A stretch of 64,000 bases of DNA from Flavobacteriaceae bacterium (GTDB lineage: Bacteria > Bacteroidota > Bacteroidia > Flavobacteriales > Flavobacteriaceae), in the NCBI GenBank assembly GCA_030683815.1, contig JAUXPJ010000018.1:55410-119409 (forward strand), written 5' to 3'. The position numbers and the translations under genes are program-made. The number at the start of each line of letters is the position of its first letter. Position 1 is the first letter of the stretch. The notes beneath the pieces are model-generated. The model was not told where the DNA came from. It saw only the letters and a list, made by a program, of their open reading frames with translations, and made no database searches. Below are positions 41,068-52,176 of this stretch, in pieces.

Positions 41068-42750
41068 TTATTCAAAAATCTGTTCCAATATTTTTTCTGT
41101 GATGATATAAGTTGGCTTTACACCGGTAGTTCCTAATCCGCCAGAAGCTAGTGTGCTACCTGTTTCCAACGGATTATCAGAAGCATAATACGCATAGCGC
41201 ACTTTTACTTTTTGCGAAATATTACCTCTGATTTTGGATGCAGATTGAATTGCTTTTTGGTAATGTGCGCCCTCCATTTCAATACCTATTACATTCCAAG
41301 TTGAAAGGTGGAAGAACTTTAAAATATCTTTATTTTGTAGTGAAGTTCCTAAAACTGAAACCATTGGTCCTTCAAAAACTTCCAATCCGTGACCTTGAAG
41401 ATGTTTCTTTTTTAGCTGGTTTTTAAATGGATAATTATCCGCAGTTCCTTCAAAAATATGGGCTGTTGGAATCATAATATCGCCTTTTCCACCTTCTAAA
41501 ATTCCGGCTTTTCCCATAATAGAAATTGATTCTACATTGAGATATTGTGTTTTTTTATCATCGGTATAATATGGCTTTAAGAGCTCATCCATGGTTTCAA
41601 AAGCTTGTTCACCGAAAGCATAATCCATCACAATAATTACGGGTTTTTCTTTTTCAATATCCGAAGAACTGAATGTAAATTTTGTTTTAGAAAAATCGAT
41701 TTTAGCGGTATCAATTAGCTGCACATCAATTTGAGTACCCGAGGGTTCTTTAATAAATATCAATCCGTTTTGAGCGGCAAATTTTTGTATATTTTTACGC
41801 ATTGCTTCATTTTCTGAGGCACTGAGTTTTAAAAATAAATCCATTCTATTGCTTTCATTAAAATCATCTTTTAAAGCCATTGGCGCATAAATAGAATTCA
41901 TAACGCTGTGCATATTAGCGCTGATGATGTGAATTGGTCTGTGTAATAATTGATGCTCAGCTAACATTTTTTTGATGTTATTAGCCCAAATTTCGCCATA
42001 AATGTGATGTCCGATTTCTTCTCTTAAAATAGTACTGAAATTAATCGATCGTTTTTCATTGTGATATACTTCTCTCATGGCTAAATATCCCAACCAATAG
42101 ATGATGTGAAAAAACCGGTCCGGATATGTTGTCGTATGAAATGCATTATAAGCAGCCAGGGTTTCGTCATAAGTGCGTCCTAGAATACTGCCAATATGTG
42201 CTATTGTTATTTCGCGTTCTTCTTGAGAAAGTTTTTTATTATTGATTACAATATCTTCTAGAGATTTCCATTCTCTAATACTTTCTTTGCCTTCATTTGA
42301 AGTTACTTTTTGCATTATTTTATGGGATTCTATAAACAAAAAAGTGAGGTGTGTTAAAATATCATAGATATCAGACCGGCCACGCGTAATTTCAATATTC
42401 ATTTGATTTTTATCGATGCGGTAACAATTTCTTCTGCGTTTTGGAGGAATCATCACCTTAAAATTTGATTTTGAAAAACCTTCGTCGGCAGTTAAATTAA
42501 CAAATTGACATTCTTCTATCCCATCTGGCAGCCGTTCTAATACATAGATTAGTCCATTCAATTCTACCTTTTCTTCTGCGATTGAACCATATATTTCTGG
42601 GCGAAGTAATAATAATGACTCTCGCAATGAATCTCCGGAAATTCCCATGGGTTTATAAAATCCGCGCGAAAATAAATGGCGCATGGTGATATACATTTTT
42701 TCAATGGCTGCCGAGGATTCTTGTGCTCTTGATCTTCCTTTATTCTTCAT
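41068..42750 (-). CDS. Conserved hypothetical 560-aa protein with nucleoside-phosphorylase-like C-terminal region
   Basis: No TM or signal peptide. The C-terminal NVIGIEMEGAHY resembles the (V/I)EME(S/A) motif of PNP/MTAN/AMP-nucleosidase folds. The N-terminal roughly 350 aa are unrecognised. Confidence 0.4.
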   Translation of the reverse strand: MKNKGRSRAQESSAAIEKMYITMRHLFSRGFYKPMGISGDSLRESLLLLRPEIYGSIAEEKVELNGLIYVLERLPDGIEECQFVNLTADEGFSKSNFKVMIPPKRRRNCYRIDKNQMNIEITRGRSDIYDILTHLTFLFIESHKIMQKVTSNEGKESIREWKSLEDIVINNKKLSQEEREITIAHIGSILGRTYDETLAAYNAFHTTTYPDRFFHIIYWLGYLAMREVYHNEKRSINFSTILREEIGHHIYGEIWANNIKKMLAEHQLLHRPIHIISANMHSVMNSIYAPMALKDDFNESNRMDLFLKLSASENEAMRKNIQKFAAQNGLIFIKEPSGTQIDVQLIDTAKIDFSKTKFTFSSSDIEKEKPVIIVMDYAFGEQAFETMDELLKPYYTDDKKTQYLNVESISIMGKAGILEGGKGDIMIPTAHIFEGTADNYPFKNQLKKKHLQGHGLEVFEGPMVSVLGTSLQNKDILKFFHLSTWNVIGIEMEGAHYQKAIQSASKIRGNISQKVKVRYAYYASDNPLETGSTLASGGLGTTGVKPTYIITEKILEQIFE

Positions 42751-42794
42751 TTGTTATTTTTTTTATTGCTTACTAAAATACAGGATTTTGTTCT

Positions 42795-43190
42795 TTAATT
42801 TAAAAGATGTTGATGGTTTTCATGAATCGTTTGGATAAACTTTTCTAATAGCGTTTTCATTTTCACTTCAAGTTCTGTTGATTTCCACTCTTTGTTATCC
42901 ATAAAAGTAATGATAAAAACATAATTCTCCGACAATTCATCATATACCGCTTGTTTGTTTTTTCGATATGCTTCGCGCATTTGACGTTTAATTCTATTGC
43001 GATGAACGGCTTTTTTGATCAAGCGTTTTGGTACGGCTAAAGCCACTTGAGCAGGATATCTGGTGTCAAGTTCTGTTTTTAAATACAACAATCGGAATGG
43101 AAATATTTTGAGTTGTTTTCCTTCAGAAAATAATTGTTCGAACAAATTTTTACCGATAAGTCGCTCTTCCTTTGTAAACGTTTGTGACAT
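42795..43190 (-). CDS. rnpA: Ribonuclease P protein component
   Basis: 131-aa basic protein; KEERL start and the RNR motif region HRNRIKRQMREAYR. Confidence 0.9.
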   Translation of the reverse strand: MSQTFTKEERLIGKNLFEQLFSEGKQLKIFPFRLLYLKTELDTRYPAQVALAVPKRLIKKAVHRNRIKRQMREAYRKNKQAVYDELSENYVFIITFMDNKEWKSTELEVKMKTLLEKFIQTIHENHQHLLN

Positions 43191-43245
43191 ATTACATGCA
43201 AAACTACACTTTTTTTAAATAACTTTTGATGAAGATTTTAGTTTG

Positions 43246-43980
43246 TTATTTCTTAAGGGTTCTCATAAAATGAACAATCAACCAAATATCTTCATCTGAT
43301 AATTTTTTAGTAAATGAAGGCATATCGGCTCTACCGACTTTGGTTTTGTAAAATAATTCGCCATCCGTTTGAGATTGAAAAACAACGGAAGAAAAATCGC
43401 CTAAATCACCTTTCATGCTTTTAGCTTTTGCCCCATCACCTAAACCTTTAGAGCCATGGCAAGCTTTACAATGTAATGAATAGAGTTCTTTTCCAATTGC
43501 AATATTTTCTTTGTTATCAGCTGTTGGATTCTTTAGGTTTTTGTCCTTTGTAGGAACAACCCAATTGGAAGTGTTGACAATGGTTTTAGTTTCTTCTACA
43601 ACTACTGCTGCTTCTTTTTTAGTTTCTACAGCTTTTTCTACAATTTTCTCAACTACAACTTCTTTTTTAACAAGCTCTTCCGTTTTGATTTCAGGTTTTT
43701 TCTCTGTTGTGGTTTTTATAACTTCTTTTTCAATACTTTTAGTTACAACAGGGGATTTTGTTACAGGTTTAGCAATTTCTTCTTTCTGAACTTGTTTAAC
43801 TTCTTCTTTAATGTTTTCCAGCTCGTCTTTTTCTGTGAGAATAGCTGTAGTATCAACTCCATTTGATTTTACTATTACACTATCAATAGTGGTTGATGAT
43901 TCTTCTTGTTTTTCCTTTGAACCACAGCTTTGAATGACCATTACAAAAAAGATAAGTCCAAAAATTAGTACTTTGTTCAT
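43246..43980 (-). CDS. Monohaem class I c-type cytochrome lipoprotein with long Lys/Glu/Val/Thr-rich tether
   Basis: Lipobox VIQSC, about 110 aa of low-complexity linker, C-terminal domain with CKACHG and distal MPSF Met; paralogue of 44096-44491. Confidence 0.85.
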   Translation of the reverse strand: MNKVLIFGLIFFVMVIQSCGSKEKQEESSTTIDSVIVKSNGVDTTAILTEKDELENIKEEVKQVQKEEIAKPVTKSPVVTKSIEKEVIKTTTEKKPEIKTEELVKKEVVVEKIVEKAVETKKEAAVVVEETKTIVNTSNWVVPTKDKNLKNPTADNKENIAIGKELYSLHCKACHGSKGLGDGAKAKSMKGDLGDFSSVVFQSQTDGELFYKTKVGRADMPSFTKKLSDEDIWLIVHFMRTLKK

Positions 43981-44050
43981 GATTTTTTTGATTGAAAGAT
44001 TGTTTTCTAAGGTACAGAATTTTGATAACTATGTATTGAATTAAATTCAT

Positions 44051-44077
44051 AAAAAAACCGAAGAATCCTCCGGTTTT
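44051..44077 (-). terminator. Intrinsic terminator after the 131-aa cytochrome gene
   Basis: The minus strand reads AAAACCGGAGGATTCTTCGGTTTTTTT. Confidence 0.7.
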
Positions 44078-44095
44078 AATCAAACTTAAAATGTG

Positions 44096-44491
44096 CTATT
44101 TTTTTAAACTTCTCATGTAGTGGACGGTGAGCCAAATCTCTTCATCGTTTAATTTTTTAGCAAATGAAGGCATATCGGCTCTGCCTACTTTTGTTTTGTA
44201 GAATAATTCACCATCTGTTTGGGTGTGAAAATCTGCAGAAGAGAAATCACCTAAATCACCTTTCATACTTTTTGCTTTAGTACCATCGCCTAAACCTTTT
44301 GCTCCGTGGCAAGATTTACAATGTAGGTTGTAAAGTGTTTTTGCTTCATTCAGATTTTCTTTAGAGGCTTCTACAGGGTTTTTAGCTTTTTTATCTTTTT
44401 CAGGCACAACCCATTTGTCTTGGTTAACTGTAAAAGAAACCAATGTTATTGTAAAAACTGCTGCCATCAAAATAATTCCAAATTGTTTCAT
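44096..44491 (-). CDS. Monohaem class I c-type cytochrome (signal-anchored or periplasmic)
   Basis: 131 aa; N-terminal hydrophobic segment, CKSCHG haem motif, conserved GELFYKTKVGRADMPSF. Confidence 0.85.
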   Translation of the reverse strand: MKQFGIILMAAVFTITLVSFTVNQDKWVVPEKDKKAKNPVEASKENLNEAKTLYNLHCKSCHGAKGLGDGTKAKSMKGDLGDFSSADFHTQTDGELFYKTKVGRADMPSFAKKLNDEEIWLTVHYMRSLKK

Positions 44492-44516
44492 ATGTTTATA
44501 TTTATTGATTATTAAT

Positions 44517-44542
44517 TGGCGTCCGTCAGCTGACGGACGCCA
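44517..44542. promoter_or_regulatory. 26-nt perfect GC-rich palindrome TGGCGTCCGTCAGCTGACGGACGCCA
   Basis: Perfect self-complement, 25 nt upstream of the start codon of the 131-aa cytochrome gene and downstream of the 281-aa gene. Confidence 0.6.
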
Positions 44543-44657
44543 GTTTGATTTAAATTTCTTTATTATTGATTACTCCACTAAATTTTATTTGTTTTTGTGT
44601 TCAGTGATTGCTTCGCAATTGTATTTTGCAAACATAGCTATTTCATAATTTTCTTTT

Positions 44658-45503
44658 TTAAGATTTACTGATTTTCTTTAAATTTATTATTAAATATAAA
44701 AAAATTCCCAGAATTCCCAATAAAATTAAGTTAGGAAATATCAGAAAGAATTTTGGTGTTTTATTAACTGGAGACCACATGGTGCGTTTGTCAAAAGTTG
44801 ATAAGTCAGTCCCTTTTATTCCAAAATCTGCGTTCATCAATGCTCTTACTGTTCCATATTCATCATGTTCTTCTAACACTACTTCAAAGATTAAATTACC
44901 ATCAAAACTGTGAAAATCTTCTTCAATCGGAACACTAATTTCGCCAGCTTCATCCGTATAATATGTGCCGTCACCCACACCCAATCCCTTAATCAATCGT
45001 CTAACCTGAACTTTTAATCCTTCTTCAGCAATTGGGTTACCTTGGTTGTCTTTTAAAAGAGCAGTAATTAGTTTACCGTCATCATTTAGAGTTAATTCAG
45101 CGAAAAGATTTACATCTTTAAAATAGAGAGACTCTGTTGTATCTTCAAATTTTAAATGATTGGTTGTTCTGAGTTCAATGGTGTTTTCAGCTTCTATAAT
45201 TCCTTTAGGAAAAATATATATTGCTACTCCATGCATATCAGTCATACCTTTACCAAGAAGCGTCTCTACATCTCCAATTTTATAAATTTCAAAAGGGATA
45301 TTTTTAGCTTCTTCCCATCCATCTTTACCTTTAAAACTGGTAATTATTTTGATAAAAGAATCTCCGTCAACAATCTTATTATATGTTAAAGAAATACTTA
45401 AACTTTGTTTTTCTTCTTGAGCATTGCTGTTAAATGCGCTAAGAACAAAAGTCATCACCAATAAGATGGATACAAACGATTTTATTTTCTGTATTGTTTT
45501 CAT
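44658..45503 (-). CDS. Exported hypothetical protein with two beta-sandwich-like repeats and a C-terminal TM anchor
   Basis: Signal peptide ending SNAQ, two similar segments (GKGMTDMHGVAIYIFPKG and YYTDEAGEISVPIEED), C-terminal FFLIFPNLILLGILGIFLYLII helix; 6 nt downstream of the NrfD-like gene. Confidence 0.5.
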   Translation of the reverse strand: MKTIQKIKSFVSILLVMTFVLSAFNSNAQEEKQSLSISLTYNKIVDGDSFIKIITSFKGKDGWEEAKNIPFEIYKIGDVETLLGKGMTDMHGVAIYIFPKGIIEAENTIELRTTNHLKFEDTTESLYFKDVNLFAELTLNDDGKLITALLKDNQGNPIAEEGLKVQVRRLIKGLGVGDGTYYTDEAGEISVPIEEDFHSFDGNLIFEVVLEEHDEYGTVRALMNADFGIKGTDLSTFDKRTMWSPVNKTPKFFLIFPNLILLGILGIFLYLIINLKKISKS

Positions 45504-45509
45504 AATCTT

Positions 45510-46820
45510 TTAGTTTTGATCGTTTGCTGATTCAGTAATACCTCTTTCATCTAAGGTGCGTTGTATTGGAATTACCGGAATAAAACGCATTAAAAAAGTG
45601 ATAATTAAAAGTGCCATAGCTAAAGTAGCTCCTGTTATTAACCATTCATGGATTGATGGAACGTAATGATGCCAACTTTCTGGAACTCCTTGCATAGGGA
45701 GAAAAGGATGTAACATTGAAGGCGTAACTATTACATAACGTTTTGCCCAAGAAGTTACCACTACTAATACTGCGATGATAAACATCGGTAATGGTTTTCT
45801 CATTTTCCTGAACATCAGCAAAGTAGATGGTATAATTAATCCACCAACAGTTACAAACCAAAACATCCAAGAAAAGTGTCCAAAGAACATTTCCATAAGG
45901 TGATCTGCTTCTAATTGTGTTGTTTTAAACGCAGGAATTAGGTATTCATTGATATTAAAATACAGGTAAACTAAACAAGAGAATACCAATAATCGACCCA
46001 TTTTATCGAAGTGTTTTTCGGTGATATAATCGTGCATATTGTAAAATTTTCTAACTATATAAACCGTTGCTATCAAAGCACCGGTACCTGCAACAAATGC
46101 TCCTGCAATAAAGTACGGACCAAAATTAGAACTGTCCCAACCAATGCGATAGGTGGTTGAAAATAACCAAGCATCAATGGTCTGTAATTGTAAAGCCAAA
46201 GGTATCATTGTAATCGCTAAAACCTGAATTGATTTTTGGTGAATCTTAATTTGTTGTTCAGTTCCTTTCCAATTAATGGCTAAAATTCCGTACAGTTTTC
46301 TTAAAAATGGTTTATCGTGATTTAACTTTTTAAGGATAGCAAAATCTGGAATACTTGGAATATAAAGTAATAAAACACTAAAAGTTAAATAAATCATTAT
46401 TATCAATACATCCCACGTAATAGGTGATTGTAATCTTGGATGTAAAAATAAGTTAGGGATTCTATCTGGCCTTCCCATATCTAAAATAATGGTAACACCA
46501 GCCATTGCTATAGAAGCTACCGCTACTATTTCAGCAATTCTAACAAGCGATGTACGCCATTTTTTTTTGGTCAATCTTAGTATAGAAGCTGTAAGGGCTC
46601 CCACAAAACTAGTAGCCACAAAAAATACGAAGTTAGAAATATAAACACCCCACAATGCATAATCGCGTAGGTTAGTTACTTCCATACCTCTCATAATTTG
46701 ATCTATATAAGCTATGATACCCGCAACGGTTACCATACACAATATTGCTATCCAAATAATTCCAATTCTACTGAATTGTTTTGGAGTTAAATCATTGACT
46801 ATTTTGTTATATGTACTCAT
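45510..46820 (-). CDS. NrfD/PsrC-family polytopic membrane protein (quinone-interacting subunit)
   Basis: 436 aa with about 10 TM helices, size and topology of polysulfide reductase NrfD-type subunits; starts 2 nt after the FeS gene stop. Confidence 0.8.
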   Translation of the reverse strand: MSTYNKIVNDLTPKQFSRIGIIWIAILCMVTVAGIIAYIDQIMRGMEVTNLRDYALWGVYISNFVFFVATSFVGALTASILRLTKKKWRTSLVRIAEIVAVASIAMAGVTIILDMGRPDRIPNLFLHPRLQSPITWDVLIIMIYLTFSVLLLYIPSIPDFAILKKLNHDKPFLRKLYGILAINWKGTEQQIKIHQKSIQVLAITMIPLALQLQTIDAWLFSTTYRIGWDSSNFGPYFIAGAFVAGTGALIATVYIVRKFYNMHDYITEKHFDKMGRLLVFSCLVYLYFNINEYLIPAFKTTQLEADHLMEMFFGHFSWMFWFVTVGGLIIPSTLLMFRKMRKPLPMFIIAVLVVVTSWAKRYVIVTPSMLHPFLPMQGVPESWHHYVPSIHEWLITGATLAMALLIITFLMRFIPVIPIQRTLDERGITESANDQN

Positions 46821-46822
46821 AA

Positions 46823-47773
46823 TTATTTAGTTTCAGTATTAGATGATGAAGTGTATTTTACTTGATCATAACTAAAGTCGGCTTCATCAAAATCAACCAA
46901 ACGATCTACAGGAGGTAAATAATACACACTGGGTGATGTTCCTAAACCTTCTAACAATCTATAGCCAGCTTTATCTTTAATCAGTTTACTAAATTTCACA
47001 GTTTCATCTCCATTTGTTACGGTGTCTTCATAAATGTCTCCAAAATAGAAAACTCCTTGAGGACAAGCAGTAACGCAATGTGGTAATTCACCTTTTGCGG
47101 TTGCATGAGGACAAAAATCACACTTATCTACCGTTCCAACTTGGCTTGGTAAACCGCCAAAGTCTGGGGTGTATTCATATCCTTCTTCTAGTTGAGGTTG
47201 TTTAGGATCGCCCCAATTAAATACGCGAACTGAATATGGACAAGCAGCCATACAGAAACGACATCCTATACAACGTTCATTGTCAATTAAAACGATACCA
47301 TCACGACGCTTAAAAGTAGCATCAACCGGACAAACCGTCACACATGGAGGCTTATCACAATGTTGACAAAGTACTGGCTGCCAATATGGTGAAGTTTGGT
47401 TTGTATTCTGCATTTTATATACTTTCAACCAAGCGTTAGGTGTGGTAATATGATGTTCTTTATTACAAGAGTCAACACACTTTAATGCATTTTTACATTT
47501 CGCCAAGTCAATTACCATTACAAATTTTCGACCTGGAAAACCTTCACGAACCTTATATTCAGCAGAATGACTTGCGTGATTTACTTTTTGAATAGCATTT
47601 GAATCAACTTCAACTACTTTTCCGTCTTGCGTTAAAACTTTAACTTTTTCTCCTTCTTGAGCTGTAGCATCTGCCAATTTAACCGCAATAGCTCCGCCTA
47701 CTACGCCCATTAAGCCAAGTTTTAAGCTTTTATCAAGAAAACTTCTTCTTGAATTTACCTCTTTTTTATCCAT
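46823..47773 (-). CDS. Tat-exported 4Fe-4S ferredoxin-type subunit (NrfC/PsrB/HybA-like)
   Basis: Twin-arginine signal SRRSFLDKSLKLGLMGVVGG and four Cys clusters (CKNALKCVDSC, CQHCDKPPCVTVCP, CIGCRFCMAACP, CDFCPH...CVTACP). Confidence 0.9.
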   Translation of the reverse strand: MDKKEVNSRRSFLDKSLKLGLMGVVGGAIAVKLADATAQEGEKVKVLTQDGKVVEVDSNAIQKVNHASHSAEYKVREGFPGRKFVMVIDLAKCKNALKCVDSCNKEHHITTPNAWLKVYKMQNTNQTSPYWQPVLCQHCDKPPCVTVCPVDATFKRRDGIVLIDNERCIGCRFCMAACPYSVRVFNWGDPKQPQLEEGYEYTPDFGGLPSQVGTVDKCDFCPHATAKGELPHCVTACPQGVFYFGDIYEDTVTNGDETVKFSKLIKDKAGYRLLEGLGTSPSVYYLPPVDRLVDFDEADFSYDQVKYTSSSNTETK

Positions 47774-47882
47774 ATCAGTTATGTTTTAAACCTTTTGTGG
47801 CGGTTGTTTTAAAATTAAAGTAGCATACCAATTCTACGAATCTTCACAGAATAGATATGCTACCAATTGTATTAATGAACTA

Positions 47883-48734
47883 TTAGAAATTATATCTACG
47901 CGTGATGGTAAACCCTAACATAAAATCACCTTTAAAGAAATCATTTTGGTTACTGAATTGACTTCTTTGATTTAAGATTCCTTTATAATTAGTGAAATAT
48001 AGTTGAAATGCGTGTGCACTGGTTGCAAACTCCACTCCTAAACTTACACCCGGTTTCGGAGTTCCCTGTTCAAACTCGGTAATCGGTTGTGTGTAATCAA
48101 ACAAGACGGCTGTTTGCGGGCTGATTTTGTAACGGCCCCCGGCAGATACTGCAATCAAATCATTTTCTTGTGTTGGCAAAACCAGATTGTAATGCGCTGC
48201 ACTTGGAGCTACTTGCAGGGATAAATTGGCGTTCACCCTTCTTGAAATAATCAATTGATTAAAATAAGAATAACGATCTTGTACATTTCTGAAATTGTCT
48301 TTGGTTCTGGCATCAACAGCAATGTTTCCATAATAAGAAACATTTACCGGAATGGATCCTGAACGGGTTTGTTTCAATAATGCCACTTTAGCGCTGAAAT
48401 CCTGCATACGGCTGTCTTTGGTGGTTGCTGCCCCTAAAGTGATGTTATCCGTAAAGCTATAGGCCAATCCTATGCGAATGTTGGTTGGCGCCCATAATCC
48501 TAAAAGGTCGTTGGTGCCTCCATCTACCAATCCGAAACGGTGCTGCATGATTACTTCCAAGGTTCCTTTGACAAAGGTAACGTTGGTGTTGTTATCAATA
48601 ATCTGTGAGCTCTCGTAAGCCGCGCGCTCCGGTTTGTCTTTTGGTTTTTCGGTGGTGGTTACTTCATCTTCTTGCGCAAAGGCAAAAACCGGAAGAAAAA
48701 CAAACACCCAAAAAAGTATTTTAATATTTTTCAT
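47883..48734 (-). CDS. Outer-membrane beta-barrel protein (possibly DUF5777-like)
   Basis: Signal peptide MKNIKILFWVFVFLPVFAFAQ, alternating beta-strand pattern, C-terminal aromatic residue (TITRRYNF). Start placed at ATG 48734. Confidence 0.6.
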   Translation of the reverse strand: MKNIKILFWVFVFLPVFAFAQEDEVTTTEKPKDKPERAAYESSQIIDNNTNVTFVKGTLEVIMQHRFGLVDGGTNDLLGLWAPTNIRIGLAYSFTDNITLGAATTKDSRMQDFSAKVALLKQTRSGSIPVNVSYYGNIAVDARTKDNFRNVQDRYSYFNQLIISRRVNANLSLQVAPSAAHYNLVLPTQENDLIAVSAGGRYKISPQTAVLFDYTQPITEFEQGTPKPGVSLGVEFATSAHAFQLYFTNYKGILNQRSQFSNQNDFFKGDFMLGFTITRRYNF

Positions 48735-48753
48735 AATTTTCTGTTTTTTAGTG

Positions 48754-49143
48754 CTATTCGTATTTGGCGTCTGTTTCAATCCATAATTTCATCGTGGCAA
48801 GTTCAGTAGCATTCAGCGTAAATCCCACATTCATGTGACCGCTGGTAGCGCTTCCCGGAGCGAATGTATATAATTTACTGCCTGAAGGATTGTTTTTCAC
48901 TACGTAATTACCAATTAAACCATTGTAGGCTGTTTGCGTATTTCTCATATCAGGAGAGGTGGAACCTCCGTGACAAGTTGTGCAACGCGATAACATCGGA
49001 GCGATATTCGCCTTAAAGGTTACCACCGTTCCCGGAGGAAGCTCTACCGGCTCTTCGAAAACCGGTATTGCTTCGTCATAGTAGCACGAGCGTAAAGACA
49101 ACCCAATGATACCGACGATGAATATTTGAAATATTTTTTTCAT
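48754..49143 (-). CDS. Small haem-binding lipoprotein (single CxxCH, PSCyt1-like context)
   Basis: 129 aa; Cys20 after a hydrophobic leader; FKANIAPMLSRCTTCHGG and C-terminal LATMKLWIETDA resemble the Planctomycete-cytochrome-C-type domain. Confidence 0.6.
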   Translation of the reverse strand: MKKIFQIFIVGIIGLSLRSCYYDEAIPVFEEPVELPPGTVVTFKANIAPMLSRCTTCHGGSTSPDMRNTQTAYNGLIGNYVVKNNPSGSKLYTFAPGSATSGHMNVGFTLNATELATMKLWIETDAKYE

Positions 49144-49179
49144 TTTCTTATCTGGTTTTAAGTTAGTTATGCGTTTTAT

Positions 49180-49220
49180 AAAAAACGTCCGGATTCAGTG
49201 AATAAAACTGAACGTTTTTT
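49180..49220 (-). terminator. Terminator-like hairpin between the hexahaem gene and the rest of the cluster
   Basis: AAAAAACG-TCCGGA-TTCAGT-GAATAAA-ACTGAA-CGTTTTTT: an 8-bp outer and a 6-bp inner stem, U-run on either strand. Confidence 0.5.
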
Positions 49221-49235
49221 AACCTAAAACATTAA

Positions 49236-50426
49236 TTATGGTAGTAATTTAAGATCTGCAACGGTGTTTTTCATCAACGCCTCGGTATATTTTGGGTTGT
49301 GTAAACCGTAAGAATGATCTTGATACACAAATCTCCAGTTCCAATATCCTTTAGTTATTCTAACATCAGCAGCAATTGTAGAATCGTATTGTCTGGTTGC
49401 TATAACCGTTAACTGATTGGCAGAAAAAGCAGCATCCGTAAATACATTAGGTGCCGTGAATGGTTTTGTACCTGTATAGTTAGCAATTCTGAAATCAGCA
49501 GGACGAAGTCTTACCATTTCTTCTGCTAATTCTAACATTAAGTTTTTAATTTTGGTTTGTCCGCCATTAATGTTATAGTTTACAACACCGGCTCCGGTAT
49601 GGCAGGTTTTGCAATTGTCTAAAACAGGAACAAACGTATGATTTCCTTTACCGTCTTTTGCTTTACCCATATGGCATTGAACACAAGAAGCACCTGTTCT
49701 ATGAACGGCAGTTCCTTTAGCTGGATAAGCAACAGTACCGGCAACCTCTGATGCGAAAATACCTTCTAACATGGCAGACTGAACGCCATAGTGAGGTCCG
49801 GTAGATGAAGACAATGCGATTTTACCAATATTAGTTCCCGAAGTAGCCGGAGCTAAACCGGTTACATCCGTTCTTCTTGGTTGATGACAATGTACACAAG
49901 CGTTGCTATTGTCTTTGTAATCAATAATTACATCAGCACCAGCTGCAGTTTTTTGATTTAATTTGTAGAAACCAGCACTTCTTAAGGCCGCATCTTTTCC
50001 GCTGATAGCCAACGCTGCGGAAGCATGTCCACCGGAGTGGCAAGTTGTACAATTGAAAATCGTTTGTGTAGTTGCCGTAGTGGTAAAAGTGGTGGTAATA
50101 TCTCCCGTTGCATAGGATGCTTTATACCCTTCATCTGAGTGGCAATTCAAACAAGAATTGTTACGACCAGGAAGTGCTGCACCTAAGGCGTGATCAGAAA
50201 CTGCATAAGTAGCAGGTTGTACTACTTTGAAATCTACATTGTGGCAAGATAAACATACGTTACCGCCATCAATACCATTAGTACCATTGGTACCATTGAT
50301 ACCATTTACGCCTGTTGCTCCTTGTGCTCCGGCAGGTCCGGGAATTGGATCATCACTAGTACATTGTACAAGGGTTAAACTTATCGCTATCACAAATAAG
50401 CCCTTCAAAAAATTCAATTTTTCCAT
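49236..50426 (-). CDS. Hexahaem c-type cytochrome lipoprotein with collagen-like Gly-X-Y N-terminal stalk
   Basis: Six CxxCH motifs (CLSCH, CLNCH, CTTCH, CVHCH, CVQCH, CKTCH); leader ending LVQC; GPAGAQGATGVNGINGTNGTNGIDG directly after the Cys. Confidence 0.85.
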   Translation of the reverse strand: MEKLNFLKGLFVIAISLTLVQCTSDDPIPGPAGAQGATGVNGINGTNGTNGIDGGNVCLSCHNVDFKVVQPATYAVSDHALGAALPGRNNSCLNCHSDEGYKASYATGDITTTFTTTATTQTIFNCTTCHSGGHASAALAISGKDAALRSAGFYKLNQKTAAGADVIIDYKDNSNACVHCHQPRRTDVTGLAPATSGTNIGKIALSSSTGPHYGVQSAMLEGIFASEVAGTVAYPAKGTAVHRTGASCVQCHMGKAKDGKGNHTFVPVLDNCKTCHTGAGVVNYNINGGQTKIKNLMLELAEEMVRLRPADFRIANYTGTKPFTAPNVFTDAAFSANQLTVIATRQYDSTIAADVRITKGYWNWRFVYQDHSYGLHNPKYTEALMKNTVADLKLLP

Positions 50427-50997
50427 AATTAATAGGTATTAGGTTTCTTTTTTTAATGTTTTTAATAAACTTATGCTAAATTTAAGCATTATTTAATCAT
50501 TTAAAATATGACAAAAATCATCTTTTTAAAAAATTTTACTTGTTGTTTATCAGGTATTTAGCTTTTTTTTAGTACTTAATTAAATTGATTCTAAATACTA
50601 CAATGTCAATTTTGTTACATAAGCGCATTTTTTTGCAATAATTGTTACTTATTTGGGCGACTATAATGTTGGAATATTGGAATGTTTAAAGTTTTCTCAC
50701 GTTTTGTTCTCAGTTGTCATACTGTTTTCGACTTATCGGGAGAAATATTTCTACATACAAGATGCGGTTCCTCTCTATGTCCGGAAATCGACGATTCGAC
50801 GAAGTTAATGACAAAACAATTGAAAATGAAAAGTTTCTTTTTAAAAGTTCTCGACACTTGATACGGGATACATAATACCCGCTTATGGAGAATTCCTCAA
50901 TGAACTTCTAACTACTCAATTCTAAATTCAAAATTTTTCATTATCAATTATCAATTATCAATTGATTAGTTCTTATTTTTGACAAAAAAAACAACTC

Positions 50998-52176
50998 ATG
51001 GCACAAGATTTATTTCAAGCACCGGATTATTATTTCTTAGATGATTTATTATCCGAAGAACATAAACTAGTAAGAGAAGCAACTCGCGAATGGGTAAAAA
51101 GATCTGTAACTCCAATTATTGAAGAAGCTGCGCAAAAAGCAGAATTTCCTACTTCTATTATTAATGGTCTAGCCGAAATTGGCGCTTTCGGACCTTATAT
51201 TCCTGAAGAATATGGAGGAGCCGGATTAGACCAAATTAGCTACGGACTCATTATGCAAGAAATTGAACGAGGTGATTCTGGCGTACGTTCTACGGCATCA
51301 GTACAATCATCCTTAGTAATGTATCCTATTTACAAATTTGGTTCAGAAGAACAAAAAAGAAAATACTTACCTAAATTAGCTAGTGGTGAATTGATGGGAT
51401 GTTTTGGATTGACAGAACCCAACCATGGATCCAATCCGGGCGGAATGGAAACCAAAATAAAAGATATAGGCGACCATTATTTATTGAATGGTGCTAAAAT
51501 GTGGATTTCTAATGCACCTTTTGCTGATATCTCCATAGTTTGGGCAAAAAATGAAGAAGGAAGAATTAAAGGATTGATTGTAGAACGCGGTATGGAAGGA
51601 TTTACCACTCCGGAAACCCACAATAAATGGTCTTTACGCGCATCATCAACCGGAGAATTAATTTTTGACAATGTAAAAATTCCAAAAGATTATATTTTAC
51701 CCAATAAAGACGGGCTGGGAGCTCCGTTACAATGTCTGGATTCTGCTCGTTACGGTATAGCTTGGGGCGCTATTGGCGCTGCGATGGATTGTTACGATAC
51801 TGCGTTGCGTTATTCAAAAGAACGAATTCAGTTTGGAAAACCTATTGCATCGTTTCAATTGCAACAAAAGAAATTAGCCGAAATGATTACTGAAATTACC
51901 AAAGCGCAGTTTTTAACCTTCAGATTGGGGCAATTACGCAATGAAGGTCGCGCAACCTCAGCGCATATTTCTATGGCAAAACGCAATAATGTTGATATGG
52001 CTTTAAACATTGCCCGAGAAGCACGTCAAGTTTTAGGAGCTATGGGAATTACCGGCGAATACTCTATTATGCGACATATGATGAATTTAGAAAGTGTGAT
52101 TACGTATGAAGGAACACACGATATTCATTTGCTGATAACTGGCTTTGATATAACCGGAATACCCGCTTTTCAATAA
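50998..52176 (+). CDS. Acyl-CoA dehydrogenase (glutaryl-CoA dehydrogenase-like)
   Basis: 392 aa; ACAD N/M/C domain pattern, GCFGLTEPNHGSNP and YEGTHDIH motifs. Confidence 0.9.
   Translation: MAQDLFQAPDYYFLDDLLSEEHKLVREATREWVKRSVTPIIEEAAQKAEFPTSIINGLAEIGAFGPYIPEEYGGAGLDQISYGLIMQEIERGDSGVRSTASVQSSLVMYPIYKFGSEEQKRKYLPKLASGELMGCFGLTEPNHGSNPGGMETKIKDIGDHYLLNGAKMWISNAPFADISIVWAKNEEGRIKGLIVERGMEGFTTPETHNKWSLRASSTGELIFDNVKIPKDYILPNKDGLGAPLQCLDSARYGIAWGAIGAAMDCYDTALRYSKERIQFGKPIASFQLQQKKLAEMITEITKAQFLTFRLGQLRNEGRATSAHISMAKRNNVDMALNIAREARQVLGAMGITGEYSIMRHMMNLESVITYEGTHDIHLLITGFDITGIPAFQ

Follow-up and report, generated by a model that had tools for sequence, protein, structure and literature searches.

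An eight-gene locus and its conserved core

The stretch analysed here, called the window below, covers 64,000 nucleotides (nt) of low-GC Flavobacteriaceae DNA (contig JAUXPJ010000018.1, positions 55,410 to 119,409; about 32 % GC). Within it, positions 43246-50426 hold eight genes that all lie on the minus strand and run in one direction, and this putative electron-transfer operon is the subject of the present work. An initial annotation, made from the sequence without database searches, had read the first six genes as an orphan NrfCD-type quinol module linked to multihaem lipoproteins and an outer-membrane beta-barrel, with two more cytochrome genes behind them. All of its open reading frames (ORFs) were found in place. 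The genes and related features are as follows, with the short names used throughout.

49236..50426, minus strand: HEX, a hexahaem c-type lipoprotein of 396 amino acids (aa), with lipobox Cys22, six CxxCH motifs and, on direct inspection, no CxxCK
50268..50339, minus strand: collagen-like linker of HEX, residues 30-53, eight perfect Gly-X-Y triplets leading from the lipid anchor to the haem domain
48754..49143, minus strand: SML, a monohaem lipoprotein of 129 aa, with lipobox Cys20 and one CxxCH
47883..48734, minus strand: BAR, a DUF5777 outer-membrane beta-barrel with 12 strands, 283 aa long; it has a signal peptide and ends in Phe, and an N-terminal segment is conserved
46823..47773, minus strand: FES, a four-cluster iron-sulfur protein of 316 aa exported by the twin-arginine translocation (Tat) route, with 15 Cys and the Tat motif SRRSFL
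45510..46820, minus strand: NRFD, an ActC-like, NrfD-family membrane subunit of 436 aa (PF03916) that interacts with quinone/quinol
44658..45503, minus strand: P281, a beta-sandwich protein of Ig-like/transthyretin-like type, exported by means of a signal peptide and anchored by a C-terminal transmembrane segment, with a conserved juxtamembrane motif
44096..44491, minus strand: CYC1, a class-I monohaem cytochrome c (His/Met) of 131 aa, ActE-like, with an N-terminal hydrophobic anchor
43246..43980, minus strand: CYC2, a lipoprotein paralogue of CYC1, 244 aa, of which about 120 form a low-complexity linker dominated by K, E, T and V
50427..50997, no strand: upstream intergenic region of 571 nt, the presumed promoter/regulatory region, shared with a divergent acyl-CoA dehydrogenase gene

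The gaps measure 19 nt between SML and BAR (counted to an ATG start), 2 nt between FES and NRFD and 6 nt between NRFD and P281. For BAR, the ORF list gives a TTG-extended frame of 298 aa that reaches 48779 and overlaps SML, whereas the ATG at 48734 gives 283 aa. Since the median gap between SML and BAR in orthologous loci is 18 nt, we preferred the ATG.

Relatives of HEX occur in at least 141 species-level genomes. Nearly all of these belong to Flavobacteriaceae, and many come from cultured isolates; the best 80 of the 141 are essentially all Flavobacteriaceae or unclassified Bacteroidota metagenome-assembled genomes (MAGs). BAR is encoded by more than 500 metagenomic stretches. The scan took one genome per species, and conservation was counted in the 58 loci with enough flanking DNA. 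In 56 of these 58 species genomes, with HEX identities down to about 31 %, the order HEX-SML-BAR-FES-NRFD-P281-CYC1 was kept on one strand. A seven-gene arrangement of this kind is far beyond chance, and the genes form one co-conserved unit, as the initial reading of the six genes had presumed. However, that reading had left both cytochromes outside. CYC1 is the seventh gene of the conserved unit, and CYC2 is a lineage-specific paralogue: a similar second cytochrome of 265 aa follows CYC1 in the Tara scaffold L090, and most other loci have none.

Tandem duplications affect both the triad HEX-SML-BAR and the quartet FES-NRFD-P281-CYC1, and the quartet duplicates independently of the triad. The two loci that depart from the conserved order are a Lutibacter MAG (L055), where HEX-SML-BAR is followed by housekeeping genes, and an unclassified MAG (L079), where HEX stands alone with 10 kb of unrelated DNA downstream. 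They could reflect a split system, or an artefact of assembly or binning.

The composition of the cluster also varies. In some loci (L012, L018, L020, L024, L042, L063 and L090) a lipoprotein of about 415 aa from the EB_dh family (ethylbenzene dehydrogenase gamma / DOMON-like haem-binding) is inserted between HEX and SML; in it, CTHDD follows the lipid Cys and a C-T-V-T-C-H (CX3CH) motif is conserved. Cyclobacteriaceae clusters, which were reached via homologues of P281, have the order SML-BAR-(Tat peptide)-FES-NRFD-P281-CYC1 and no HEX (L086, from Belliella baltica CP003281; L087; L088). HEX is therefore dispensable, and its initial placing as a core part was given up. Upstream of these HEX-less clusters lie a split CusA and two CusB genes, downstream a P-type cation ATPase gene, and MerT/HMA and ArsR genes are nearby. 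Such metal-efflux neighbours were confined to L086-L088, with none in the window or in the 80 Flavobacteriaceae loci.

A 396-aa ORF upstream of the Belliella cluster, considered as a further cytochrome, is actually a Cys-rich AraC-type regulator with an HMA-like CxxC and a CTCGCGCEDCHC motif. In L086-L088 the cluster is followed by DUF3144 and OMP_b-brl_2 genes. The Tat peptide is a small ORF of 89-92 aa between BAR and FES that occurs in L002 and L086-L090 and is absent from the window. It has a Tat-type signal (SRRGIL or SRKKFL) and an LLxPDGxxVxV segment resembling the N-terminal part of FES; a leader fragment that arose by duplication and a small subunit are both conceivable.

A different arrangement was found in 80 Bacteroidia-type loci, obtained from a metagenome scan seeded with a Prolixibacteraceae barrel. 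Here HEX-SML-BAR, or sometimes SML-BAR alone, is followed by a CYC1-like cytochrome and by a 7-haem protein plus cytochrome b, as well as by a NapC/NirT-like cytochrome, a c554-like cytochrome and often a 19-haem cytochrome-b fusion. These 19-haem proteins (L097-L105, L115, L117, L120 and L149) are about 950 aa long, with 19 CxxCH motifs and a C-terminal cytochrome b561/FdnI-like membrane domain, and repeat the architecture of Geobacter CbcL on a giant scale.

When all loci are taken together, 145 of 146 testable barrels have SML directly upstream. The core that stays constant is this pair of SML and BAR, wired to one of several quinol modules; HEX, the EB_dh lipoprotein and the giant cytochromes are optional additions. 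Neither the window nor the flanking DNA of about 80 related loci contained a molybdopterin subunit, NrfA, MccA, ActB1 or other catalytic partner, and the initial claim that the FES/NRFD pair lacks a molybdopterin subunit, NrfA, MccA or ActB as partner was thereby borne out. Genes that do recur in the flanks of related loci are hemA, hemN, other haem-synthesis genes and a ccsBA cytochrome-biogenesis fusion.

Properties of the encoded proteins

HEX carries, besides its six CxxCH motifs and Gly-X-Y stalk, a C-terminal three-helix region. Annotation pipelines name it 'ammonia-forming cytochrome c nitrite reductase' because Pfam Cytochrom_C552 (PF02335) matches its residues 241-389, with 45 bits against a cutoff of 24. 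We ruled out an assignment to NrfA: the Pfam match is partial and C-terminal, CxxCK is missing from the window HEX and from every homologue (0 of 129), and the NrfA equivalogs scored far below their cutoffs (NF008339, 22.9 vs 595; TIGR03152, 15 vs 692.5). The DmsE model (40 vs 192) and the Mtrc-MtrF_II-IV model (28.6 vs 30) were missed as well. As the initial annotation had supposed, these homology searches led to no characterised enzyme family, and HEX is not a characterised enzyme. The parts of the operon are nevertheless not as unrelated to known systems as first stated, since HEX appears to belong to the multihaem superfamily of NrfA, OcwA and MtrC domains.

Outside the haem motifs, exactly six His, at positions 79, 134, 212, 242, 263 and 376, are at least 97 % conserved in the 129 family members. 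These would suffice to provide each of the six haems with a distal His, so that bis-His ligation is possible throughout, and there is no sign of an open catalytic site; the pairing of haems with ligands was deduced from conservation. The AlphaFold2 (AF2) model of HEX has good confidence for residues 150-396 only, the N-terminal half being unreliable, and its Foldseek neighbours are all weak: OcwA (6i5b; E 0.012, TM-score 0.38), then NrfA and the S-layer cytochrome OmhA. Sequence comparison with the PDB gave only marginal HAO/NrfA matches. OcwA is an NrfA-fold terminal reductase for extracellular electron transfer (PMC6703420). HEX resembles OcwA and NrfA in the C-terminal three-helix region and in the spacing of the haem motifs, but it is anchored by a lipid, carries a Gly-X-Y stalk and has six haems rather than nine (OcwA) or five (NrfA). 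For all six HEX offers a conserved candidate distal His, whereas two haems of OcwA are five-coordinate and one haem of NrfA is bound by CxxCK.

The longest Gly-X-Y run comprises 6-9 triplets in 122 of the 129 HEX family members, so that the number of triplets varies while the periodicity is kept; Pfam Collagen stays below threshold on the linker, with 15 bits. The repeat suggests a collagen-like, possibly trimeric, stalk on a cytochrome. Collagen-like stalks are typical of surface-displayed proteins.

The family of SML comprises 317 representative clusters, for the most part lipoproteins some 125 aa long. Its alignment shows the consensus DIQPIFxxxCxxCH around the haem motif and, right after the lipid Cys, a nearly invariant C-x-Y-D. 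The PSCyt1-like character of SML, proposed at the outset, turned out to be borderline. The PSCyt1 profile gave no match to the window SML at E<=0.1; the Belliella orthologue, aligned along the full model, scored 21.7 where the cutoff is 22, and a tandem-repeat relative, P0364, reached 138 bits. Against the PDB the SML profile gave weak matches, to the iron oxidase FoxE (5mab; 2.9e-5 over the whole domain) and, around the haem motif, to PccH. At the position of the distal ligand the window SML has His103 and Met104, adjacent in a G-H-M-N motif within residues 96-105. The sixth ligand is of the His type in most HEX-bearing clusters and of the canonical PSCyt1 Met-Pro-Pro type in HEX-less clusters ('NNMPP'), and this predicted switch implies different haem potentials in the two cluster types. 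Among the best 150 of the 317 SML-family representatives, no evident fusion to a barrel was seen, and the multi-domain members are tandem cytochrome repeats.

BAR is a full-length member of Pfam DUF5777 (PF19089; 262 bits vs 23.1, model positions 2-247 of 247). AF2 modelled it with 12 strands at a confidence (pLDDT) of 82.5, and the best Foldseek matches of this model are NanC, FapF, autotransporter barrels, VhGalP and a COG4313 channel, the nearest folds being 12-strand barrels. Judged from strand alternation, conserved Gly, Ala, Ser and Thr face the lumen together with invariant charged residues, and the loops are short. In Lutibacter, BAR is more conserved than HEX (about 60 % vs about 33 % identity). 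Both lipoproteins of the window have motifs resembling the lipoprotein export signal (LES) after the lipid Cys, CTSDD in HEX and CYYDE in SML, which fit the export signal of Bacteroidota. Surface lipoproteins of this phylum use a general export pathway with such a signal (PMC5080379).

On the inner-membrane side, FES is a Fer4_11 protein of DsrO/TtrB/NrfC-like type. Its best NCBIfam model is DsrO, with 191.7 against a cutoff of 200, followed by TtrB, QrcC, ArrB and NrfC; the equivalog scores of FES and NRFD are 134.7 vs 400 for QrcC, 119 vs 350 for DsrP and 74.9 vs 570 for QrcD. PDB matches of FES are ArrB, PsrB and ActB, the ActB alignment covering only ActB residues 771-944. The Tat motif and the four Cys groups noted initially were confirmed, but the expected 16 Cys were not: FES has 15, and the second Cys of group I is missing in 79 of 79 orthologues (C-x5-C-x3-C), with Ala in its place in 76. 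Group III is complete (CxxCxxCxxxCP) in all 79. For comparison we used the cluster content of alternative complex III (ACIII) and Qrc (PMC8076601). An ACIII-like cluster content was considered for the 15-Cys FES and rejected, since the incomplete Cys group is I and not III; in the alignment with FES, group III of ActB reads C-V-G-T, and in ACIII this incomplete group goes with a [3Fe-4S] cluster beside the quinol site.

NRFD matches PF03916 with 114 bits, and its best PDB matches are ActC chains (6lod_C, 8k9e_C, 6f0k_C and 6btm_C), with E-values of 2e-47 to 4e-40 over residues 22-424. P281 always directly follows NRFD and belongs to a family of 340 homologues that reaches into the Cyclobacteriaceae. 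No Pfam family and no match to ActD was found for P281; its orthologues gave sub-threshold matches to Big_1 (13 of 26) and also to MG4 and transthyretin, and transthyretin-like PDB matches had E 0.05. The two-repeat beta-sandwich described initially is weakly supported, as hhalign compared the two halves with E 1e-3 and a probability of 19%. Because P281 has no conserved Cys, His or Met, it is presumed to be a structural subunit. CYC1 matches Pfam Cytochrom_C/Cytochrome_CBB3 and the ActE chains 6btm_E (E 2.8e-9) and 6f0k_E (E 8e-6). The haem domain of CYC2 is close to that of CYC1 by eye, and its linker appears long enough for a tethered periplasmic shuttle. A plus-strand ORF at 43511-43789, overlapping CYC2, looks like a by-product of the low-complexity region.

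Taken together, FES, NRFD, P281 and CYC1 are better called an ACIII-derived set than 'orphan NrfCD', the label first given to them. NRFD is similar to ActC, FES aligns to the B2 part of ActB and CYC1 is similar to ActE (for example in the complexes of Flavobacterium johnsoniae, 6BTM, and Rhodothermus marinus, 6F0K); the order FES-NRFD-P281-CYC1 mirrors actB-actC-actD-actE, and quinol interacts at the periplasmic side in both. The differences from ACIII are equally clear. The operon is without the pentahaem ActA, the molybdopterin-like B1 domain, ActD and ActF, P281 stands in the ActD position, and no ActA-, ActD- or ActF-like gene was found in the window or in the cluster-family scan of 80 related loci. 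Moreover, the incomplete Cys group is I in FES but III in ActB, and the module of the operon, unlike ACIII, is genetically tied to outer-membrane proteins.

A putative link between the menaquinone pool and the outer membrane

Apart from the barrel, the predicted components are all electron carriers, membrane proteins that interact with quinone, or scaffolds. We propose, giving the proposal an even chance of being right, that the operon encodes a respiratory chain which exchanges electrons between the menaquinone pool and a redox site at the outer membrane. Such a chain would have no dedicated catalytic subunit and would work by outer-sphere exchange with a metal species, a mineral or a shuttle, with HEX as wire or antenna. 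Specifically, NRFD would exchange electrons with menaquinol/menaquinone at the periplasmic face, FES would relay them to the membrane-anchored CYC1, and P281 would be a structural, spacer-like subunit. The long-tethered CYC2, the stalked HEX or both would carry electrons across the periplasm. At the outer membrane, SML sitting at BAR would form the redox site, a two-gene analogue of the fused cytochrome-porin Cyc2, where a metal ion, metal chelate, mineral surface or small redox shuttle, reaching the haem through or at BAR, would undergo outer-sphere exchange with the SML haem. HEX, with presumed bis-His ligation of all its haems, would extend this site as antenna or wire.

The direction that we prefer is outward, as a disposal of electrons to Fe(III), Mn(IV) or humics under O2 limitation, although the sequence does not settle it. 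Outward flow fits because the carriers are heterotrophic and bis-His haems have low potential. Inward flow fits because CYC1 is an ActE-like His/Met cytochrome and because the HEX-less variant occurs in a metal-efflux context. That the system is built for transfer between the quinone pool and the outer membrane is clearest in the Bacteroidia version, owing to its membrane-anchored 19-haem wire. The operon is also modular in the manner of envelope conduits, since the same SML-BAR(-HEX) set is joined to different quinol modules. In this modularity the trans-envelope conduit logic of the initial annotation holds; a passage of electrons across the outer membrane itself is conjectural. Further points in favour of the proposal are the conservation of the unit, the strict pairing of SML with BAR, the likeness of NRFD to ActC and of CYC1 to ActE, the lack of a catalytic partner, the six conserved distal His of HEX and its weak similarity to OcwA, the tandem duplications, the precedent of Cyc2 and the metal-efflux surroundings of the HEX-less clusters.

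Several points weigh against this proposal. Its main weakness is that no encoded part obviously carries electrons through the modelled 12-strand BAR. The AF2 model agrees with the earlier view that a barrel of 283 aa would be too small to sheath a cytochrome domain, no cofactor-bearing element is predicted inside it, and the lumen has a small-residue lining and may be plugged by the conserved N-terminal segment. CYC1, a His/Met cytochrome, is probably of high potential and would be a poor fit upstream of low-potential bis-His haems if electrons flow outward. The structural matches of HEX are not significant (best E 0.012), with half of the model unreliable. The LES-like signals of the window are not general either: acidic residues at both +4 and +5 occur in only 10 of 82 HEX and 33 of 75 SML orthologues, most orthologues having one acidic residue.

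A bolder version, which we put forward only tentatively, is that SML and BAR constitute a minimal outer-membrane conduit specific to Bacteroidota, backed by a quinol module of ACIII-derived or cytochrome-b type and extended by HEX as an antenna on the cell surface. Flavobacteriaceae and Prolixibacteraceae, abundant in the sea and in sediments, might then respire insoluble Fe/Mn oxides, humics or electrodes with it, or take up electrons.

The nearest analogy to the SML-BAR site is Cyc2, the iron oxidase of neutrophilic and acidophilic Fe oxidisers. It is a monohaem cytochrome fused to a small 16-strand barrel, which oxidises dissolved Fe2+ at the outer membrane and hands the electrons to periplasmic cytochromes (PMC8406198). 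Both designs combine one haem c with a small barrel unable to sheath a cytochrome, and in both a class-I periplasmic cytochrome c is followed by an ACIII/bc1-type quinone link, as in SML, BAR, CYC1 and FES/NRFD. However, SML (129 aa) and BAR (283 aa) are two genes, whereas Cyc2 is a single polypeptide of at least 365 aa; BAR has 12 strands rather than 16, SML is a lipoprotein of probably PSCyt1-like fold, and there is no sequence homology. The Cyc2-defining motif AXPXFAR[QK][TY], which lies 5 residues upstream of CXXCH (PMC8406198), is also absent. Membership in Cyc2 was therefore ruled out, every defining feature tested being absent, and Cyc2 was kept as an analogy.

The porin-cytochrome conduits (MtrCAB, PioAB/MtoAB, Geobacter Pcc/Ext) share with the operon a barrel, a lipoprotein multihaem cytochrome and a quinol-oxidising inner-membrane module, as well as tandem duplications, and the cytochrome-b-fused and NapC/NirT-type cytochromes of the Bacteroidia loci recall CbcL and ImcH. 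However, the known conduit barrels have 20-26 strands and enclose a deca- or multihaem cytochrome, in contrast to the 12 strands of BAR, and no gene for an insertable cytochrome of MtrA/DmsE type was found in the operon. The Qrc, Nhc, Hmc and DsrJOP complexes of sulfate reducers and sulfur oxidisers likewise combine a multihaem cytochrome c, a four-cluster iron-sulfur protein and an NrfD protein, and connect periplasmic cytochromes with menaquinone in either direction without a molybdopterin enzyme. Here all equivalog cutoffs were missed, the operon has no QrcB, HEX is unrelated to QrcA, NhcA and DsrJ, and those complexes, unlike the operon, have no outer-membrane partners.

The proposed chain has to be weighed against other explanations. 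If electrons flowed inward as the system's actual function, SML and BAR, with or without HEX, would oxidise Fe(II), Cu(I) or reduced humics that are external or enter the periplasm, for detoxification or supplementary energy, and the electrons would go to CYC1 and then a terminal oxidase, or into menaquinone via FES/NRFD as in Qrc and Nhc. In ACIII, ActE hands electrons to the oxidase, and the ActE-like CYC1 suits such a route. So do the HEX-less Cyclobacteriaceae clusters, whose SML is of the His/Met type and which sit between CusA/CusB genes of resistance-nodulation-division (RND) pumps and a P-type ATPase gene, near the Cys-rich AraC regulator; the weak match of SML to FoxE; and the best scores of FES/NRFD on DsrO/DsrP and Qrc models, which describe quinone-reducing or bidirectional complexes. 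Cyc2 itself is an iron oxidase, and its iron oxidation possibly serves detoxification (PMC8406198; PMC8446621). Even so, we regard inward oxidation as unlikely. The carriers are organotrophic Flavobacteriaceae without known lithotrophy, the metal-efflux context is limited to the Cyclobacteriaceae-type loci L086-L088, the FoxE and PccH matches are weak, and menaquinone is out of reach for electrons from high-potential donors such as Cu(I), so that FES/NRFD would have no role. Somewhat more doubtful is a periplasmic reductase for a small N, S, Se or Te oxyanion that enters via BAR, with HEX or SML as the quinol-fed enzyme. It would need no electron transfer across the outer membrane, the nearest structural counterparts of BAR are solute channels (NanC, VhGalP, COG4313), the C-terminal part of HEX passes the Cytochrom_C552 gathering score, OcwA-type proteins slowly reduce nitrite and hydroxylamine, and Bacteroidia neighbours match selenite/tellurite Ext proteins, albeit very weakly. 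Yet HEX has no CxxCK, has a conserved distal His for each of its six haems and so no obvious open site, misses the NrfA equivalogs widely and is absent from many clusters, while SML-BAR is universal. The accessory proteins (EB_dh haem lipoprotein, 19-haem wire, c554-like cytochromes) are all electron carriers, and outer-membrane anchoring and periplasm-spanning wires would be needless for a soluble periplasmic reaction.

The remaining explanations assign the barrel or the quinol module to other tasks. BAR might be a translocon or anchor that, in the manner of Slam, FapF or autotransporters, places the lipoprotein cytochromes on the cell surface. FapF and autotransporters, 12-strand barrels that conduct polypeptides, are among its best structural matches, a lumen of small residues would suit a held peptide segment, and the tight coupling of the SML and BAR genes, the nearly invariant C-x-Y-D of SML, the LES-like acidic residues of the window proteins and the collagen-like stalk of HEX can all be read in this way. 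We consider this improbable. How electrons cross the membrane would go unexplained, BAR has its fold class in common with Slam and FapF but no homology, and general lipoprotein export in Bacteroidota should make an operon-specific barrel needless (PMC5080379). Less probable again is a slim ACIII, in which FES, NRFD, P281 and CYC1 would be a second quinol:cytochrome c oxidoreductase feeding aerobic oxidases and the outer-membrane genes would be unrelated, serving haem or iron handling. The ActC-like NRFD, the ActE-like CYC1, the mirrored act gene order, the independent duplication of the quartet and the haem-biosynthesis neighbours agree with it. However, SML-BAR accompanies the quartet at essentially every locus in three orders, and where the quartet is absent another quinol module adjoins SML-BAR; in addition, ActA, ActD, ActF and the B1 domain are missing and FES and ActB differ in which Cys group is incomplete. 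That HEX is an ammonia-forming nitrite reductase NrfA served by NrfC and NrfD is hardly credible, being refuted at the sequence level. The pipeline name, the PF02335 score above gathering and the adjoining NrfC/NrfD-type genes speak for it, but only the C-terminal helical region matches, CxxCK and equivalog support are lacking as described above, HEX has six haems, a lipid anchor and a collagen-like stalk, and there is no NrfB or NrfH.

A chain from the menaquinone pool to an outer-membrane redox site thus remains our preferred reading, and the operon is apparently undescribed: in open-access text we found no paper on the cluster, on DUF5777, or on a combination of NrfD, multihaem protein and barrel in Bacteroidota. 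The building blocks are known (ACIII/NrfD modules, NrfA/OcwA-type multihaem proteins, class-I cytochromes and small barrels), whereas the SML-BAR pair and the combinations are outside any described system. The carriers are major degraders of organic matter in coastal sediments and on particles, where O2 fluctuates. If the proposal is true, Flavobacteriaceae and Prolixibacteraceae, so far regarded as aerobic or fermentative polymer degraders, would have an unrecognised route to dispose of electrons, gain electrons or handle redox-active metals. It would also explain what DUF5777 proteins do, and with them a large family of small lipoprotein cytochromes of PSCyt1-like type, would put right the systematic misannotation of HEX as 'nitrite reductase', and would add a very small barrel-plus-monohaem design to the known solutions for electron transfer at the envelope. 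Direct testing is possible because several carriers are available from culture collections; cultured carriers include Maribacter arenosus CAU 1321, Lutibacter litoralis JCM 13034, L. oceani 325-5, Muriicola jejuensis KCTC 22299 and Mariniflexile aquimaris, and, for the HEX-less type, Belliella baltica DSM 15883.

Flanking genes and regulatory signals

The operon of the window is flanked by housekeeping genes, with rnpA, DUF6909, a sugar transferase gene and purD on one side, and the acyl-CoA dehydrogenase gene, a TonB-dependent receptor gene, recO and porZ on the other. The DUF6909 protein (41068-42750, 560 aa) is encoded between rnpA and the sugar transferase gene and lies outside the conserved cluster.

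No intrinsic terminator was predicted on the minus strand across 42700-51100. The region upstream of the window HEX showed no FNR-type box, and FNR/CRP-type boxes upstream of HEX were found in 5 of 78 loci compared with 3.8 expected from shuffled sequences, indicating no enrichment. A sigma-70 scan gave sites no commoner than chance, and this promoter type is ill-suited to Bacteroidota anyway. A search for the TAnnTTTG motif returned candidates before the CYC1 and CYC2 genes only. At about 50935-50960, three tandem copies of ATTGATA (CAATTGATAATTGATAATTGATAATG, minus-strand reading) adjoin the divergent acyl-CoA dehydrogenase gene, and this repeat may be a putative binding site for a regulator.

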